A stretch of 64,000 bases of DNA from IMG/VR virus record IMGVR_UViG_3300008987_000001; one strand, 5' to 3'. Of this stretch, positions 2,563 to 45,261 are shown one piece after another; positions within the stretch are counted from its first letter, which is position 1; every line of letters starts with the position of its first letter. A model generated the notes under the pieces. It made no database searches. It was not told the origin of the DNA and saw only the letters and a list, made by a program, of their open reading frames with translations. The stretch is from a virus (lineage: Duplodnaviria > Heunggongvirae > Uroviricota > Caudoviricetes). Position numbers and translations under genes: made by a program.

Positions 2563-3818
2563 GCCAACACCTGTTGCCCTGGTTCAACTGTCGAAGAAAC
2601 CTGGCCGTCACTGATTACAAACCCCATACTCCCGGTTTCGTCAACCGCTTCAATCCATACCTGCATCCCGTGTTTTGAAGCCATATCTGCGATAATTTCG
2701 CGAGATTTGCTATCAAGAAGTGAACCGTCCCGGATAAGCAACACTTTCAGAGAAGGATTCATACTGATTCCAATAGCAACCGATACCCGGATTTGTTCGG
2801 CTGAACTTGCCTGTTTCAGCGAAAACCCGTTAAATAAAACACCTGTTTCGTCAAATGAAAGCCCCTTAACCGGAAATTTAGCAGACTCAAGTGTGTCTTT
2901 TTTGTCCTGGTCAATATCCTGAATCTGTTCAATGATGCAATCTAAATCTGCCTCAATATCCTTGAGACGAATGGAAAGATCATTTCGCTGTTTTTTAATC
3001 CGAACGTTCTGATTGATTGATTCGATTGATGAGAGTTTTTCCTGTAAAGGGGCAATAGGTTCAGGATGAATTTCTGCAAGGCTCTTTTCCATTTCCTCTT
3101 GAGATATATAGAGTTCTTCGAGTTGACGCTGAAGGGATGATATTCTCTCTCTTTTTTCTTCAATGACTTTATTATTTAACAAAATTGCATTGAGAATGCT
3201 TTCCTTTTCAGATTCCTGAGATGAAGCGGTCTTAATCTGTTGTATCAAACCGGTTGCAGATATTTCTTCATCAGGAGTACCTTCAGGCACAGTGGAGAGT
3301 TCAGAAATCTGCATCTCGATTAATTTTTGTTTGGATGAGATCTGATTTTTTTCACGTAAGAGTTCTGATTTCTGGAAATCATATTCAGAGAAATCAATCC
3401 CTAACAAATCCATTAATGCTTGCCGCTGATCTCTCGGTTGCATCCGAATAAATTCCAGTGGGTCAAAACCTACCTGAGAAAAAAACTTATCCAGCATTGC
3501 CTGAGGAGATTTGTATACTGCTCCATCCTTACTTTCAACTTTGAGCTGGGAACCTGAAGGGGTCCATGTCCGGGTTACAATCATATCTCCTAGGTCAAGA
3601 GATACAGTTGCTTTCTTTTCTCCCTGGTGGATAGGTTCCGGGATCTGTCCTGACACATCCCGCCAGTTCAGGGCAGCACAAATAGCATTCAGGATAGATG
3701 ATTTCCCCTCTCCGTTTGCTCCGGTGATGTATACGATATCACCAGACGGTGAGATTGAGACTGCTTTCAGCCGCATGAAGTTTTCAGCGGTGAGTTTCAG
3801 GATCTTCCGGTCGGTCAT
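2559..3818 (-). CDS. SMC/Rad50/SbcC-like ABC ATPase with a short coiled coil
   Basis: Walker A GANGEGKSS, central coiled coil, signature-like ASSAEQ, Walker B/D-loop LLIRDGSLLD, and terminal WIE motif. Confidence 0.85.
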   Translation of the reverse strand: MTDRKILKLTAENFMRLKAVSISPSGDIVYITGANGEGKSSILNAICAALNWRDVSGQIPEPIHQGEKKATVSLDLGDMIVTRTWTPSGSQLKVESKDGAVYKSPQAMLDKFFSQVGFDPLEFIRMQPRDQRQALMDLLGIDFSEYDFQKSELLREKNQISSKQKLIEMQISELSTVPEGTPDEEISATGLIQQIKTASSQESEKESILNAILLNNKVIEEKRERISSLQRQLEELYISQEEMEKSLAEIHPEPIAPLQEKLSSIESINQNVRIKKQRNDLSIRLKDIEADLDCIIEQIQDIDQDKKDTLESAKFPVKGLSFDETGVLFNGFSLKQASSAEQIRVSVAIGISMNPSLKVLLIRDGSLLDSKSREIIADMASKHGMQVWIEAVDETGSMGFVISDGQVSSTVEPGQQVLA

Positions 3819-26778: not shown

Positions 26779-26931
26779 ACAAAATCCATTCTGCACCCTC
26801 TATTTTTCACACAACAAAACTTGAGTAGATATTACCAAACGATCACCCACACACATCCTTATATATAACCTATAACCAACTTGCTCCATCCACCCATTAA
26901 ACCTATATACTTCCCCGTCCTATATATCCAT

Positions 26932-27594
26932 ATGTTACTACCAGACATTATTGGATATACCGTTATGATATTCATCATACTATTTGCCTTTAGCCTCATC
27001 ACAGCCCGCTACGAGATCCTCATGGGGCTGATCCCCCTTGCAATCATACTGCACCTCATCTTTGCAACCTGTACCTTTTACATTCCACCAGACTCCTATG
27101 GCTACACTGATAACACCATTTACCCCCCAACCCACCAGTCCTTCAAATTCCCATGGGAGTCCATAACCATCATAAAGCATAAATACGCTGACATTAAACT
27201 TAAATTCACCACTCACACTTCCGACAACTACGAACTGGTCCACACCTTCGAACTGAACAGTTGGAAATGGGATCCGCGAATCTACCAGTCCAAATACTCC
27301 CATAACACCCAGAATTACATTGACCAAGAAGTTAAGCGCCTCTCACCAATCGTAGATCGTGTTATGTCAACCATTTCATCCCGATCATTCTATTACGATG
27401 GCGAAGGTGCCAACCAACAGATCCGTAAAGCCCTCATCCCCAACTTAAACCTCAATGGCCTCACATACGATCCCGGTCGTTACCAAACCGACGACTACAA
27501 ATTCATCAATTACTTTAGTGGAGGCACCGGATTAAACAAAATCGAGGACAAATACATCTGTGAAGAATACTGGGGCCTTTGCAATAGTATTTAA
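26932..27594 (+). CDS. Membrane protein, possibly SPFH/band-7-like
   Basis: Two N-terminal TM segments, then YIPPDSYGY (compare SPFH V.PG..GV) and helical segments; TATA about 30 nt upstream. Confidence 0.45.
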   Translation: MLLPDIIGYTVMIFIILFAFSLITARYEILMGLIPLAIILHLIFATCTFYIPPDSYGYTDNTIYPPTHQSFKFPWESITIIKHKYADIKLKFTTHTSDNYELVHTFELNSWKWDPRIYQSKYSHNTQNYIDQEVKRLSPIVDRVMSTISSRSFYYDGEGANQQIRKALIPNLNLNGLTYDPGRYQTDDYKFINYFSGGTGLNKIEDKYICEEYWGLCNSI

Positions 27595-27803
27595 CTTTAC
27601 CTAAAAATCAACTACTTTTATAATCGCCCACTTATTATATACAACCACAACTTTGCGCTACACTCTATCCATCACTTCAAATCACCCAAAATCTCACTAA
27701 TTCACCATAACATTTATATACTTAAACTACACACCATATAATGTCAAGGATGCGTGCGATTACAATTCGCCCCCCTTACATAGAACTAAAAGGACATATT
27801 ATC

Positions 27804-28007
27804 ATGACTCTACCAATTGCAACTACAGAACGTGTGATTCGTGAAGCAGGCGTCAGCCGTATCTCAAGTGAGGCAACCAAACTCATTATTGACAGTGCCG
27901 AATCATACATCAAATCCCTTGCTACCAGATCATACTCGTATGCAACCCATGCTGGCCGCAATACCCTCAAGGACAGTGACGTCAGGGCAGCCCTCGGCAT
28001 TGAGTAA
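27804..28007 (+). CDS. Archaeal histone (HMfA/HMfB family); alternative start 27741 adds 21 aa
   Basis: MTLPIATTERVIREAGVSRISSEA...HAGRNTLKDSDV is in register with HMfB (LPIA, R10, G16, R19, H49, G51, R52, T54, K56, D59). Confidence 0.92.
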   Translation: MTLPIATTERVIREAGVSRISSEATKLIIDSAESYIKSLATRSYSYATHAGRNTLKDSDVRAALGIE

Positions 28008-28113
28008 AGTGCTTAACTTTTAACCAAAGTCAATCAAGTTCATAGAGGTCCGTGATCAACCATAAATGATCACAAGACATTTTTATTACAATTTTATAAA
28101 AAAAGTAGTGTAA

Positions 28114-28455
28114 TTATTCGTCCATTGCTTCTTTTATACTTTCCACACTTCTCCACCCATCAATCAGTTCCATAACCTTCTCAAGGATATCCACACCAAT
28201 TCTACTCGGCTTATACAGCACATCCCGACCATGGCCAATTTTTGTGACGAATCCACCATCAATTAACTCCCTGACAACCTTTTCATGGCCAATTTTATCC
28301 TTTTCAATCGGCCCATCTTCATAGATCCGCACAAAAACATCAAACGTACGTCTATTCAATGCACAAAAAACGTCCCTATAATCTAAATAACTTCGCCTAC
28401 ACATAACTATATATAAATTGTATACATCAACTATATATACATATGCCAACAACAC
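28114..28455 (-). CDS. Winged helix-turn-helix transcription regulator
   Basis: Helical core, then LIDGGFVTK...VLYKPSRIGVDIL wing motif typical of archaeal wHTH proteins. Confidence 0.65.
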   Translation of the reverse strand: MLLAYVYIVDVYNLYIVMCRRSYLDYRDVFCALNRRTFDVFVRIYEDGPIEKDKIGHEKVVRELIDGGFVTKIGHGRDVLYKPSRIGVDILEKVMELIDGWRSVESIKEAMDE

Positions 28456-28761: not shown

Positions 28762-29019
28762 TTAGTCAACTAGATCGAATGTCCAGCCACATGATTTACA
28801 TCGTGCATACTTACCTTTCATGAACAATTCATCAACATAAAGGGTCTGGTACTCATAACATCCACAATTTGGACATTTAATAGCATCAAACACTTCATTA
28901 TCAATAAGTTCAGCCTCATCTATATCATAAGGCTCAACATAACAGATGTAATCCCAAACACTAAATAGAATCCATACTATTGTAAATCCAACAAGTATGC
29001 CAATTATAATACCAATCAT
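28762..29019 (-). CDS. Membrane-anchored Zn-ribbon protein
   Basis: N-terminal TM helix; CPNCG...CKSCG. Confidence 0.65.
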   Translation of the reverse strand: MIGIIIGILVGFTIVWILFSVWDYICYVEPYDIDEAELIDNEVFDAIKCPNCGCYEYQTLYVDELFMKGKYARCKSCGWTFDLVD

Positions 29020-30431: not shown

Positions 30432-33218
30432 ATGTCATCTGAAAATCTTTCTCTAAAGGAACGGTTGGAGTTTGCAAAAACCGTAAGCCACGGAAGAAAG
30501 GATCCTGTATGGTTTTTGAAAGATATTATTGGTTGGACTTCTATTTTCCCTATGCAAGAGGAAATAGTTAGACGCTTCTATCAAAATAAGTACGATCCTT
30601 CCTTACAAAAGTATAAAAAGTTAATAGCAAGGTGTGGTCAGAGGTGTTTATCTGGCGATTCTCATGTATATACAAATCATGGATTAATACAAATTAAGGA
30701 TTTATATACAAATAATGACGATGTCCAAGTATATAATGGAAATGCTTGGGTATCACCATCTGAAGTGATATTTGCTGGTAAAAAATCATTATTTAAAATA
30801 ACTACTGAATATGGATTTTCTATAGAATGTAGCGAAGATCATAAATTTTATACATACAATGGTAGAAAACTTGAGTGGAAATCATTAAAAGATATTAAAA
30901 TAGGGGAAGATTGTTTACAAGTTGTAAAGGGGTTGCATTGTAGTGGAACTGATCAAATATCTGACAAAATGTGGAGAGATTTTAAAGCATTTACTAACCA
31001 AAATAAAACAAAATATATTCTACCTGACAAAATAACTCCGGAGTTAGCATCAGTAATGGGTATGTTAATTGCAGATGGTGATATTGCAAATAAAGGGAAA
31101 ATACGATTTACAAAGGGTGATAGAAGTTTAATAGATTTTTATGTAAATGGGATGAAGCATCAATTTAATTTAAATTGTAATGAGTATTATAAAGAAGGAA
31201 ATACTCAAAGTATTGAGATATATAGCGAAGTAGTAAGACATTTTTTATACTGTGTGGGATTGGACTTCACGATATCTTCAACTAAACATATTCCACATTG
31301 TATATTAAATGGTACAAAAGAAATACAAGTTGCATTTTTATCTGGATATTTTTCATGTGATGGGAATGTTCAAGAATCTAAATCTGGAAAATCAAAGAAA
31401 TGTAGAGTAACATCTACTACTGTATCAAAGCAATTAGCATTTGAATTACAGGGCATGTTGCTTGGGCTCGGAATAATTTCATCTATATCTATAAGCAAAT
31501 CTGTAGAATTTGGCAGTCGTATAAAGCGAGACAATGATGCATTTACATTAAATATATTTGGAAAGGAAATACTTGCATTCTATGATAATATAAAATTAAT
31601 TTCTACTACTAAACAAGAAAAATTTAACAGTGTATATCTATCTCAAAAAAGTAAACGAGTAAAAGGTAGATATTTACCCATCTGTAAAGATCTTTTACAT
31701 GAGTGTTTTGAATACCATTCTTCATTAAGACATATGTGGAAAAAAGATTCAAAGGAGTTTCTCATAGATAAGCATAAAGATTTGTATAATGGCGGTTCTG
31801 ATATAGTAGATCAGTTGATAAAAGAAGATAATATCTTTGTGATGGTCAAATCTATACAGGATCTTGATGCATGTATAGATATGTATGATCTTCATGTCCC
31901 AGAAGGTAATTGTTATGTTGCAAATGGATTTTTGACTCATAACAGTGGGAAGACAGTTCTAGGCTCAAAGATTGCTATTTATGAATTTTTTGAATTAGTG
32001 TCATTAGATAATCCTGCAGAATACTATGGACTGATTAAAAATCAGGAAATAGCAATAAATTGTATTGCTGCTGGCAAAGAACAGGCATTAGAAGGTATGT
32101 TTTCACTGATGCGAAATGATATAGAAGAGAATGAATGGTTCAATCAATGGTTTGATCTCAAGATAACTGAAGGGAAAATAACATGCGATAAGAAGCATGT
32201 TTATGCAAAGGTGGCCGCAGCACGCGCTGATTCGGGATCTGGTACTGGTACAACGTCCAAATTATCATTGCTTGACGAAGTGGACTTATTTCAACGAACA
32301 GACTCTAAAGTTGGTTCAGAAGTAGTTATATCAAAAGCACTCAATGCAACTAAAACACTTGGACTTGATGGTAAATTTGTAGCAATTAGTTCTACTCAAT
32401 TTACGGATGGTGCAATCACAAAACTATATATGGATGGTCAAAATGAGACAGATACTCTAGTATATAATTTACCCACATGGATTATGAATCCAAAATTTAC
32501 GAAAGAAACATTAATGGAAGAGTACAGATACAAAATGCACATGTTTTGGAGAGATTTTGCGAATCAACCAGAAGTATCTGGTGGTTTGATGTTTCCAAAT
32601 GGCGTTAAGTTTAATAAAAATATTCCAAATGTATTCTTCGCAGATGAACAAATCGTTGATGAATATGCTCAACATTATCACGTAATTTCGTTGGATCCAG
32701 CATTTAGGAACGATGCATTTGGAATAGCATGTGGTTATGTAGATGGTAATAATATTGTTATTGACGGTGCTAGGAAATATACAAAAGAACACGAAACAGA
32801 AGCATTTATAAAACCATCTGATATGGAAAATGAGATAGAGCGTTGGGTTGAAAGATTGAACGTAACTACATTGCTTTTTGATGCTGATATTATATTAAAC
32901 ATTGTTGAAAAAGCACAAGATCAATGGGGGATTACTACTATAAAAAATATAGTTGGTGAAAAAGAATATGGGATGTGGCTTAGTTTAAATGATGGAATTG
33001 GAGAATATAATCTCGACATTACTTATGATGAGTATGCAAAGAGAGAGGCGGAACAATTAGTAAAATCACAATTACCAAGTGGTAAAATACGGGTGGATCA
33101 CCCATTTTCAGGATCTAAAGATGTTGCAGACTCTATTTGTCAAACAATTTACTTTTTAAGCCAGAACAATACAGGCAATACTTGGAATCCTATTGGGCAT
33201 CTGGCAGCAATGCGATGA
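30432..33218 (+). CDS. terL: Terminase large subunit, intein-containing
   Basis: The spliced Walker A reads GQR|SGKT; Walker B LLDEVD; ISS coupling motif; RNase H-like SLDPA...D and terminal D.AD. Confidence 0.92.
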   Translation: MSSENLSLKERLEFAKTVSHGRKDPVWFLKDIIGWTSIFPMQEEIVRRFYQNKYDPSLQKYKKLIARCGQRCLSGDSHVYTNHGLIQIKDLYTNNDDVQVYNGNAWVSPSEVIFAGKKSLFKITTEYGFSIECSEDHKFYTYNGRKLEWKSLKDIKIGEDCLQVVKGLHCSGTDQISDKMWRDFKAFTNQNKTKYILPDKITPELASVMGMLIADGDIANKGKIRFTKGDRSLIDFYVNGMKHQFNLNCNEYYKEGNTQSIEIYSEVVRHFLYCVGLDFTISSTKHIPHCILNGTKEIQVAFLSGYFSCDGNVQESKSGKSKKCRVTSTTVSKQLAFELQGMLLGLGIISSISISKSVEFGSRIKRDNDAFTLNIFGKEILAFYDNIKLISTTKQEKFNSVYLSQKSKRVKGRYLPICKDLLHECFEYHSSLRHMWKKDSKEFLIDKHKDLYNGGSDIVDQLIKEDNIFVMVKSIQDLDACIDMYDLHVPEGNCYVANGFLTHNSGKTVLGSKIAIYEFFELVSLDNPAEYYGLIKNQEIAINCIAAGKEQALEGMFSLMRNDIEENEWFNQWFDLKITEGKITCDKKHVYAKVAAARADSGSGTGTTSKLSLLDEVDLFQRTDSKVGSEVVISKALNATKTLGLDGKFVAISSTQFTDGAITKLYMDGQNETDTLVYNLPTWIMNPKFTKETLMEEYRYKMHMFWRDFANQPEVSGGLMFPNGVKFNKNIPNVFFADEQIVDEYAQHYHVISLDPAFRNDAFGIACGYVDGNNIVIDGARKYTKEHETEAFIKPSDMENEIERWVERLNVTTLLFDADIILNIVEKAQDQWGITTIKNIVGEKEYGMWLSLNDGIGEYNLDITYDEYAKREAEQLVKSQLPSGKIRVDHPFSGSKDVADSICQTIYFLSQNNTGNTWNPIGHLAAMR
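30645..31943 (+). mobile_element. Intein (433 aa) with a LAGLIDADG homing endonuclease
   Basis: Begins CLSGDSHV and ends YVANGFLTHN, followed by Ser; LAGLIDADG motifs VMGMLIADG and FLSGYFSCDG. Confidence 0.95.
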
Positions 33219-45038: not shown

Positions 45039-45261
45039 TCAGGAATATCTTGACGGCACATATCAATTTCTCGATCCTGATGAATATGAAGATAGAACGG
45101 ATGAATACCTCCAAGCAATTGGATTTTTGGCCCTCATGAGTGGGAGATTACCATCAGAAATATTCGACGACGATAACTGGAATGAAACAATTCTCTTCAA
45201 CCTTCGCGTATCAAACAGTGTATTCCGCGTAATCCTCGATGTGCTGAAATTACGCATGTGA
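45021..45261 (+). CDS. Frameshift-accessed C-terminal part of the tail assembly chaperone (gpT-like)
   Basis: TTT_CGC at 45021-45026 just before the gpG stop; the +1 frame is open to 45261 with protein-like sequence AIFSNQEYLDG...ALMSGRLPSEIF. Confidence 0.6.

Follow-up and report, generated by a model that had tools for sequence, protein, structure and literature searches.

Among the described histones, the closest to the protein considered here are HMfB and HMfA from Methanothermus fervidus and HPhA from Pyrococcus horikoshii (PDB 1a7w, 5t5k, 1b67 and 1ku5). We analyzed a histone gene from a tailed virus (Caudoviricetes; IMG/VR record IMGVR_UViG_3300008987_000001), located in a stretch of 64,000 nucleotides (nt), hereafter the window. 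The viral histone belongs to the same length class as the HMf-type proteins (67 vs. 68-70 amino acids) and shares with them the helix layout and the 28-residue helix alpha2, while it differs from HMfB by the substitutions L46Y, K53N and L62A, the absence of a basic C-terminus, a net charge of +1, stacking pairs that are not conserved, and the virus-borne gene. The MFVHFP proteins, HMf-like viral histone-fold proteins of Caudoviricetes (Liu et al., hLife 2025, PMC13681535), likewise consist of an archaeal-type single histone fold encoded by tailed prokaryotic viruses. They have been reported in viruses predicted to infect archaea, with no functional tests for the class (Liu et al. 2025, PMC13681535). 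The clade described here may be absent from that catalogue, as a pattern scan of IMG/VR found no relatives of the histone, a result that depends on the patterns chosen. The "phage histone" of Schwab et al. (PMC11390915) is of a different, alpha3-truncated type.

Two other kinds of archaeal histones are relevant for comparison. The capstones Msp_0383 and Msm_1260 (PMC7776873) likewise carry substitutions where dimers meet, which could restrict the growth of oligomers, and are marked by an acidic or hydrophobic residue in position 49 (Stevens et al., PNAS 2020, PMC7776873), whereas in the viral histone both H49 and D59 are retained, the changes being confined to the hydrophobic positions 46 and 62 that flank them. 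The likeness of the viral gene to the tailed histones of Heimdallarchaeota LC_3 (HA), Huberarchaea and Bathyarchaeota B23 (PMC6136690) is confined to an open upstream frame: the tails of these archaeal proteins contain lysines and are similar to that of H4 in length and composition (PMC6136690), whereas the 21-codon stretch upstream of the viral histone is not conserved and overlaps a leader hairpin.

The locus is probably, though by no means certainly, a monocistronic gene for an untailed 67-residue HMf-type histone of a virus-specific clade, with an architectural or regulatory role in the infected cell. The gene occupies an 88-codon open reading frame (ORF; 27741..28007, plus strand), in which the internal ATG at 27804 gives 67 residues. 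Both forms match PF00808, the family of CBF/NF-Y and archaeal histones (E = 2.6e-14 for the 88-residue form and 1.1e-14 for the 67-residue one). Residue 22 is the first one matched in the longer form, and the shorter form covers profile positions 1-65 of 65 with 54.9 bits, the gathering score being 21.4 bits. Among solved structures, phmmer identified HPhA (1ku5, E = 1e-11), HMfB (1a7w/5t5k, E only 8e-8) and HMfA. The phmmer alignment to HMfB is gapless (residues 1-63 to 1-63), so that the HMfB numbering can be used directly. The HMfB residues R10, G16, R19, H49, R52, T54, K56 and D59 are retained; in particular, the DNA-anchoring R10 and R19, the loop-2 R52-x-T54 and D59 are all present, while position 53 is occupied by Asn, or by Ser in some relatives. 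A PHROG scan of the histone gave nothing useful, and a six-frame search of the window with hidden Markov models identified a single histone gene. The first-pass annotation, made from the sequence of the window, had proposed a virus-encoded archaeal histone, and this is borne out by the PF00808 match, the gapless HMfB register and the genes of a tailed virus on the same contig; its list of kept residues (those above without R52) and of changed ones (Y46, N53, A62) was right throughout.

The AlphaFold2 (AF2) model of the monomer, with a mean predicted local distance difference test (pLDDT) score of 71, contains helices at residues 5-14, 22-49 and 57-64, and thus predicts a canonical histone fold, in which the central alpha2 comprises 28 residues and alpha3 has its full length. 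The protein is predicted to form the usual handshake homodimer, with a score of 0.86 compared with 0.27 for the best control, 96% or more of the contacts shared between runs, and a pLDDT of at least 88 for the partner. In the calibration of complex predictions, 20 of 30 solved pairs and one of 23 single chains reached the mark, counts that apply only roughly here, and the pass of the homodimer probably reflects its resemblance to solved histone dimers. Prediction of a four-copy complex gave confident contacts for the handshake dimer only and none between dimers, and has no bearing on the four-helix bundle; tetramer predictions by AlphaFold are ambiguous even for HMfB (PMC13260811).

A word-indexed search yielded seven relatives with 63-90% identity, all called as proteins of 67-69 amino acids. 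When phmmer was run exhaustively against 1.84 billion cluster representatives, only three matches had E<=1e-10, namely P0009 (66% identity) and P0010 (56%) from the same clade and P0011 (39%), a histone doublet, all remaining histones in this search being at most 48% identical to the query. In the tree of 155 histone-fold domains the viral clade forms one group with a single long-branch intruder (support of 90 in the Shimodaira-Hasegawa-like approximate likelihood ratio test, SH-aLRT). The contigs of the clade are virus-like, and, judged from these comparisons, the histone is a long-standing and clearly virus-specific viral gene, which would have been kept beside the DNA-packaging genes in a family of large tailed archaeal viruses.

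P0011, the third-best match in the library, is a metagenomic protein of 206 amino acids, whose two histone folds are nearly the same in sequence, suggesting a very recent tandem duplication, and which also carries about 70 additional residues at the C-terminus.

Hypernucleosome formation has been linked to the dimer-dimer residues L46, H49, D59 and L62, to G16, and to the stacking pairs K30-E61, E34-R65 and R48-D14 (Henneman et al. 2018, PMC6136690). At the dimer-dimer interface of the viral histone H49 and D59 are kept, while Tyr occupies position 46 and Ala position 62; G16, the small residue of the stacking interface, is invariant in the clade alignment. The stacking positions contain D30/R61, S34/G65 and T48/E14, that is, the HMfB pairs are not conserved, and at most one pair could form (D30/R61, charge-swapped), positions 30 and 61 varying freely in the clade.

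The substitutions in positions 46 and 62 are also found among other histones. In 183 aligned histone-fold domains (the search matches, with the clade included), position 46 is Leu in 69, Tyr in 38 and Phe in 25 domains, position 62 is Leu in 70 and Ala in 34, and position 53 is Lys in 106 and Asn in 17. Moreover, HPhA has Phe in position 46, and eukaryotic H4 has Tyr in the equivalent position. By these counts, Y46, F46 and A62 are ordinary variation among histones. What is distinctive is the combination found across the clade: position 46 is Tyr, Phe or Leu, A62 occurs in 12 of the 13 members, every member has Asn or Ser in position 53, a basic C-terminus is lacking, and the net charge is 0 to +1 in 12 of 13 (+3 in the protein of contig L020), compared with the median net charge of +3 and isoelectric point of 9.3 in 69 other singlet histones among the matches. 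H49 is found in the window and in 11 of the 12 relatives from the clade, the L020 protein having Asn there.

Since the minor-groove arginines R10 and R19, the loop-2 residues R52, T54 and K56, the R52-D59 and H49-D59 pairs and G16 are kept, the protein should bind and bend DNA, and tetramerisation is probably retained. At the same time, K53 is missing, the net positive charge is close to nil, there is no basic C-terminus, and none of the three HMfB stacking pairs is conserved. Residue 53 is among the main contributors to DNA binding (PMC7776873). From the change in this position, the low charge and the missing stacking pairs, we infer weaker electrostatic binding and less stacking without loss of tetramerisation, which would result in weaker DNA binding, or in short, loosely stacked complexes, rather than in long stable hypernucleosomes. 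The gene, its fold, the conserved start site, the clade, the synteny and the purifying selection are shown by the present analysis, while the oligomeric behaviour and the role in infection are inferred. In the infected cell the protein would most likely serve as an architectural or regulatory DNA-binding factor, with viral or host DNA as its target.

The substitutions at the interface had initially been read as those of a capstone-like variant. In such a model the viral protein would be a capstone-like or poison subunit, forming heterodimers or heterotetramers with the host histones, where Y46, A62, N53 and the missing stacking pairs would cap or destabilise hypernucleosomes, thus opening or disorganising the host chromatin during infection. 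The model agrees with the residues typical of the clade in positions 46, 62 and 53, with the near-zero net charge and the lack of a basic C-terminus, with the single HMfB stacking pair that could form at most and is not conserved (by the criteria of PMC6136690), and with the fact that archaeal histone paralogues co-assemble (PMC7776873). However, the published marker of capstones in position 49 is absent, H49 and D59 being kept (PMC7776873), the chromosomal histone HPhA has F46, and Y46, F46 and A62 fall within the ordinary variation described above, while identity of at most 49% to any cellular histone makes heterodimerisation uncertain. The capstone reading is thus not backed by the marker, and we consider this role unlikely, remodelling of host chromatin as such being possible. 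It seems quite improbable that the protein is a dedicated viral anti-chromatin factor, that is, a near-uncharged histone that would co-assemble with host histones via the H49-D59 bundle, terminate or loosen hypernucleosomes in the absence of K53, the stacking pairs and L46/L62, be expressed from a non-late promoter with a regulated structured leader, and work with the linked winged-helix protein.

The untailed, architectural or regulatory histone preferred here would be produced from a monocistronic unit, in which the promoter is followed by a structured 5' leader of about 64 nt, a Shine-Dalgarno-like (SD-like) site and the 67-residue coding sequence starting from the ATG at 27804. The TATA box TTTATATA starts at 27713, and the ATG at 27741 lies 28 nt downstream of it. 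In the relatives, the invariant core AAC(A/C)TTTATATA is found 69-100 nt ahead of the histone ATG, and the promoter is kept in every relative whose contig reaches it (contig L020 ends before the promoter). The TATA start is followed, at a distance of about 26-28 nt in the relatives, by TA(A/C/G)TGT, which corresponds to the initiator-like motif ATATAATGT of the window. In four relatives CTG, GTG or TTG stands in place of the ATG contained in this motif, although the rest of the motif and the hairpin are retained. Moreover, an identical 13-mer promoter at 45261 is followed by ATATAATGT at the same distance, with a small non-coding hairpin unit downstream; the sister copies of this unit lack an ATG at that site.

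The DNA upstream of the MTLP start was compared in eleven relatives. An N-terminal extension cannot be encoded in nine of them, contig L020 is not long enough for a verdict, and L017 has an unrelated extension; the tail considered for the window is encoded in none. In seven relatives an in-frame stop codon is located 2-12 codons upstream of the histone start (5-7 codons upstream in L001, L002, L003 and L004, and two codons upstream in L019 and L021). L020 has an in-frame stop 12 codons upstream and an out-of-frame ATG TAG in the initiator-like motif, its contig breaking off some 92 nt upstream without having reached a TATA box. In two further relatives the only in-frame upstream starts are GTG or TTG at or upstream of the promoter: in L018 the start-proximal ATG opens a 13-codon ORF ending with TGA, and the histone frame is open to the contig start with in-frame GTG/TTG only, upstream of the promoter, while L005 has no in-frame ATG and in-frame GTG/TTG starts only at or upstream of the promoter. 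The extension in L017 consists of 13 codons starting from GTG (the 89-amino acid call P0009). The indels that distinguish the window from its relatives in the 21-codon stretch are not multiples of three.

Leader structure was assessed by thermodynamic folding of individual sequences with shuffled controls, for nine sequences from about six lineages. All nine fold into a single 5' hairpin, located a few nucleotides inside the leader, with z-scores of -1.9 to -3.5 against the shuffled controls, and the inner stems have entirely different sequences from one lineage to the next. No consensus structure emerged when RNAalifold was applied to the leaders aligned with MAFFT, the hairpins varying in length and sequence, and no Rfam family matched the leader. 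Both upstream in-frame ATGs of the window, at 27741 and 27750, are within the 5' arm of the hairpin. In most relatives the same histone ATG is preceded, at 7-10 nt, by an SD-like AGAGGA, GAGGA, AGGAG or GGAG, no clear site being present in L017. These comparisons indicate that translation most likely starts at the ATG 27804 and that the region upstream is a folded untranslated leader of the mRNA.

The alternative, proposed in the first-pass annotation, is a leaderless start at the ATG 27741 (or 27750), giving an 88-residue (or 85-residue) histone with a basic N-terminal tail of 21 amino acids. Its description of the tail sequence and of the in-frame ATG 27741 is correct, as is the position of the TATA box 28 nt before this ATG. 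The distance is near to, and does not coincide with, that of the genes in the structural block that are clearly leaderless, where the TATA box starts 30-32 nt before the ATG (38797, 45626 and 55316; also 28762 on the minus strand at 30 nt), and which have a promoter of a different class. In favor of the tailed isoform, the frame of the window is open from 27726, gene callers picked the product of 85 or 88 amino acids on the JGI contig, and the window has a weak SD-like site ahead of 27804. Still, the absence of the tail from the relatives, with their in-frame stops or GTG/TTG-only frames, the loss of the ATG in four of them from a motif and hairpin that persist, the occurrence of ATATAATGT after the identical promoter of the non-coding unit, and the position of both ATGs in the hairpin arm all argue against it. 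The tail itself is rich in isoleucine and arginine with one lysine, unlike the lysine-containing Heimdall-type tails (PMC6136690). A conserved tailed histone is thus not supported by the comparison, and we consider the tailed isoform very unlikely.

The histone promoter belongs to the class AACMTTTAWATAC (13-mer), found seven times in the window vs. 1.0 expected, including the identical copy at 45261. Besides the histone gene, this class drives two leftward genes and the small-RNA-like unit. Its sites include those at 27709, 45261 and 62351 on the plus strand, and 17932 and 18819 on the minus strand. A different class, CCTTTATATATTGT, serves the structural module, with six sites vs. 0.1 expected, all within 34863-55296. 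The presence of two promoter classes looks like a temporal promoter code. The label "late", earlier attached to the gene, is unsupported, because the histone promoter is not of the structural-module class. The layout with a TATA box, a long leader and an SD site is also observed at the tail-tube gene (40822).

Several observations weigh against the architectural or regulatory, untailed histone described above. The L020 protein (3462-3665, minus strand) combines H49N with V62 and hence has an altered tetramer pair, and P0010 (L018, 158-370) has R10G, having lost a minor-groove arginine, so that the key residue features are not uniformly constrained. In addition, the window is the only case in which the upstream frame is open, and its SD-like AAGGA is weaker than those of the relatives; a minor 88-residue isoform is possible.

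The window belongs to a large tailed virus of archaea. It encodes a large terminase of 928 amino acids (phrog_17415), split by an intein with a LAGLIDADG endonuclease, a tail-tube protein (40822, PF18906), a tape measure protein of 3,215 amino acids (45626), and a 316-residue protein (36891) that is Phage_capsid_4 on the matching public contig. The promoters of the window are archaeal TATA boxes, and the genes in operons use GGTGA, GGAGG or GAGGT ribosome-binding sites. A megablast search of 20 kb around the histone gene against a phage database gave no match. The terminase of L019 consists of 499 amino acids and apparently contains no intein.

In tailed viruses the terminase drives naked DNA through the portal. 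Compaction of the viral genome was another role suggested initially; in the virion, the histone would be packaged with, or would condense, the DNA in the capsid, and the location of the histone gene about 2.4 kb upstream of the large terminase, kept in the relatives, would be consistent with this. Such a role in the virion is rejected here as highly improbable: a terminase and the standard genes for head and tail are present, the protein has nearly no charge, and its promoter is not of the structural-module class.

The order of genes is also retained in the relatives. L019 and L020 have the same order as the window, comprising the histone gene, the small winged-helix gene, genes for proteins of 179-184 and 198-199 amino acids, and the large-terminase gene, the latter being recognised by a domain match in L019 only. 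L019 and L021 also carry the window's neighbours on the other side of the histone gene, and the gene upstream of the histone in L003 and L005 is homologous to the ORF 26881-27594 of the window. Substitutions between the window and three relatives are distributed over codon positions 1/2/3 as 6/5/25, 8/9/30 and 9/9/35, and, since they occur mostly in third positions, the histone coding sequence is under purifying selection. The earlier suggestion to look for a near-identical host copy was followed, and no such cellular histone was found. The named genomes identified by the pattern scan (Asgard doublets, a metagenome-assembled genome, MAG, of Micrarchaeota, and MAGs of methanogens) show 37-49% identity, in a scan that likewise depends on the patterns chosen; of 401 genomes sampled in the phylum to which a Methanosarcinaceae MAG belongs, 336 contain a histone match, the best one at 49% identity; and the ten nearest histones outside the clade are nine metagenomic singletons and one protein from a Methanofastidiosa MAG. 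A passively captured host histone without a virus-specific role is extremely improbable, as recent capture is contradicted by the best cellular identity of 49%, the grouping of the clade, the synteny shared by related viruses and the purifying selection, whereas ancient capture with later specialisation is compatible with the virus-specific histone proposed here.

Features of the histone locus and associated elements in the window
Feature	Position	Strand	Basis
Archaeal promoter AACATTTATATAC of the histone gene (B recognition element, BRE, and TATA box)	27709..27721	+	Core invariant in six aligned loci
Initiator-like motif ATATAATGT at the predicted transcription start, containing the ATG 27741	27736..27744	+	Conserved spacing from TATA
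21 codons of the proposed tail, most likely an untranslated leader	27741..27803	+	Comparison with eleven relatives
5'-proximal leader hairpin (predicted)	27741..27781	+	Minimum free energy -9.8 kcal/mol, z -2.4
Shine-Dalgarno-like AAGGA, 9 nt before the ATG 27804	27790..27794	+	Sequence, relatives
Histone coding sequence, 67 amino acids and stop	27804..28007	+	PF00808, gapless HMfB alignment, AF2 helices, third-position substitution bias
Inverted repeat GTGATCA/TGATCAC followed by T5 and T4 tracts, between convergent genes	28052..28095		Read from sequence
Small winged-helix DNA-binding protein (predicted), about 84-96 amino acids, convergent neighbour	28114..28404	-	AF2 model, Foldseek
Intein-bearing large terminase	30432-33218	+	PF14890, PF14528
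CCTTTATATATTGT promoter sites	34863, 35048, 38765, 40752, 45592, 55283	+	Motif count in window

The convergent neighbour of the histone gene has no Pfam or PHROG match. Its AF2 model (pLDDT 83.5) has as top Foldseek matches the winged helices of AspA (the centromere-binding protein of pNOB8), MarR and ArsR, all weak (E about 7e-3). The gene has 17 homologous clusters with 65-94% identity (65-85% among the near full-length matches), so that its family is wider than the histone family found by the word search, and it adjoins or is near the histone gene in L017-L021. A partnership between the histone and this conserved neighbouring protein is possible. For the proteins encoded upstream of the histone gene, Pfam and PHROG scans gave nothing useful.

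The inverted repeat between the two genes is a putative bidirectional terminator common to both; a scan for bacterial-type terminators found nothing. About 40 nt immediately after the histone stop codon (28008-28050, plus strand; …CAAAGTCAAT…TTCATAG.GGT.CCG…) are conserved in L001-L004 at about the level of the coding sequence, and could be an element of the 3' untranslated region or a part of the shared terminator. Between the winged-helix and packaging genes, on the minus strand (28762-29019), there is a gene encoding an 85-residue protein that has a transmembrane segment at its N-terminus and a zinc ribbon with four cysteines, a position that is filled by genes of similar size in L019-L021.

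HMf-like histones of Caudoviricetes have already been published, and the gene described here adds a clade with a well-defined set of substitutions. The open 5' leader of this gene would be annotated as a histone tail if no relatives were considered, and gene callers did so on the public contig. To our knowledge, archaeal-type histones of prokaryotic viruses have been catalogued only recently, with function demonstrated for none. The clade offers a clean experimental case, as the protein consists of 67 residues, is virus-specific and is fixed beside packaging genes, and Y46, N53, A62 and the lack of net charge can be reverted singly against the well-studied HMfB system. The outcome would tell whether viral histones organise their own DNA or interfere with host chromatin.

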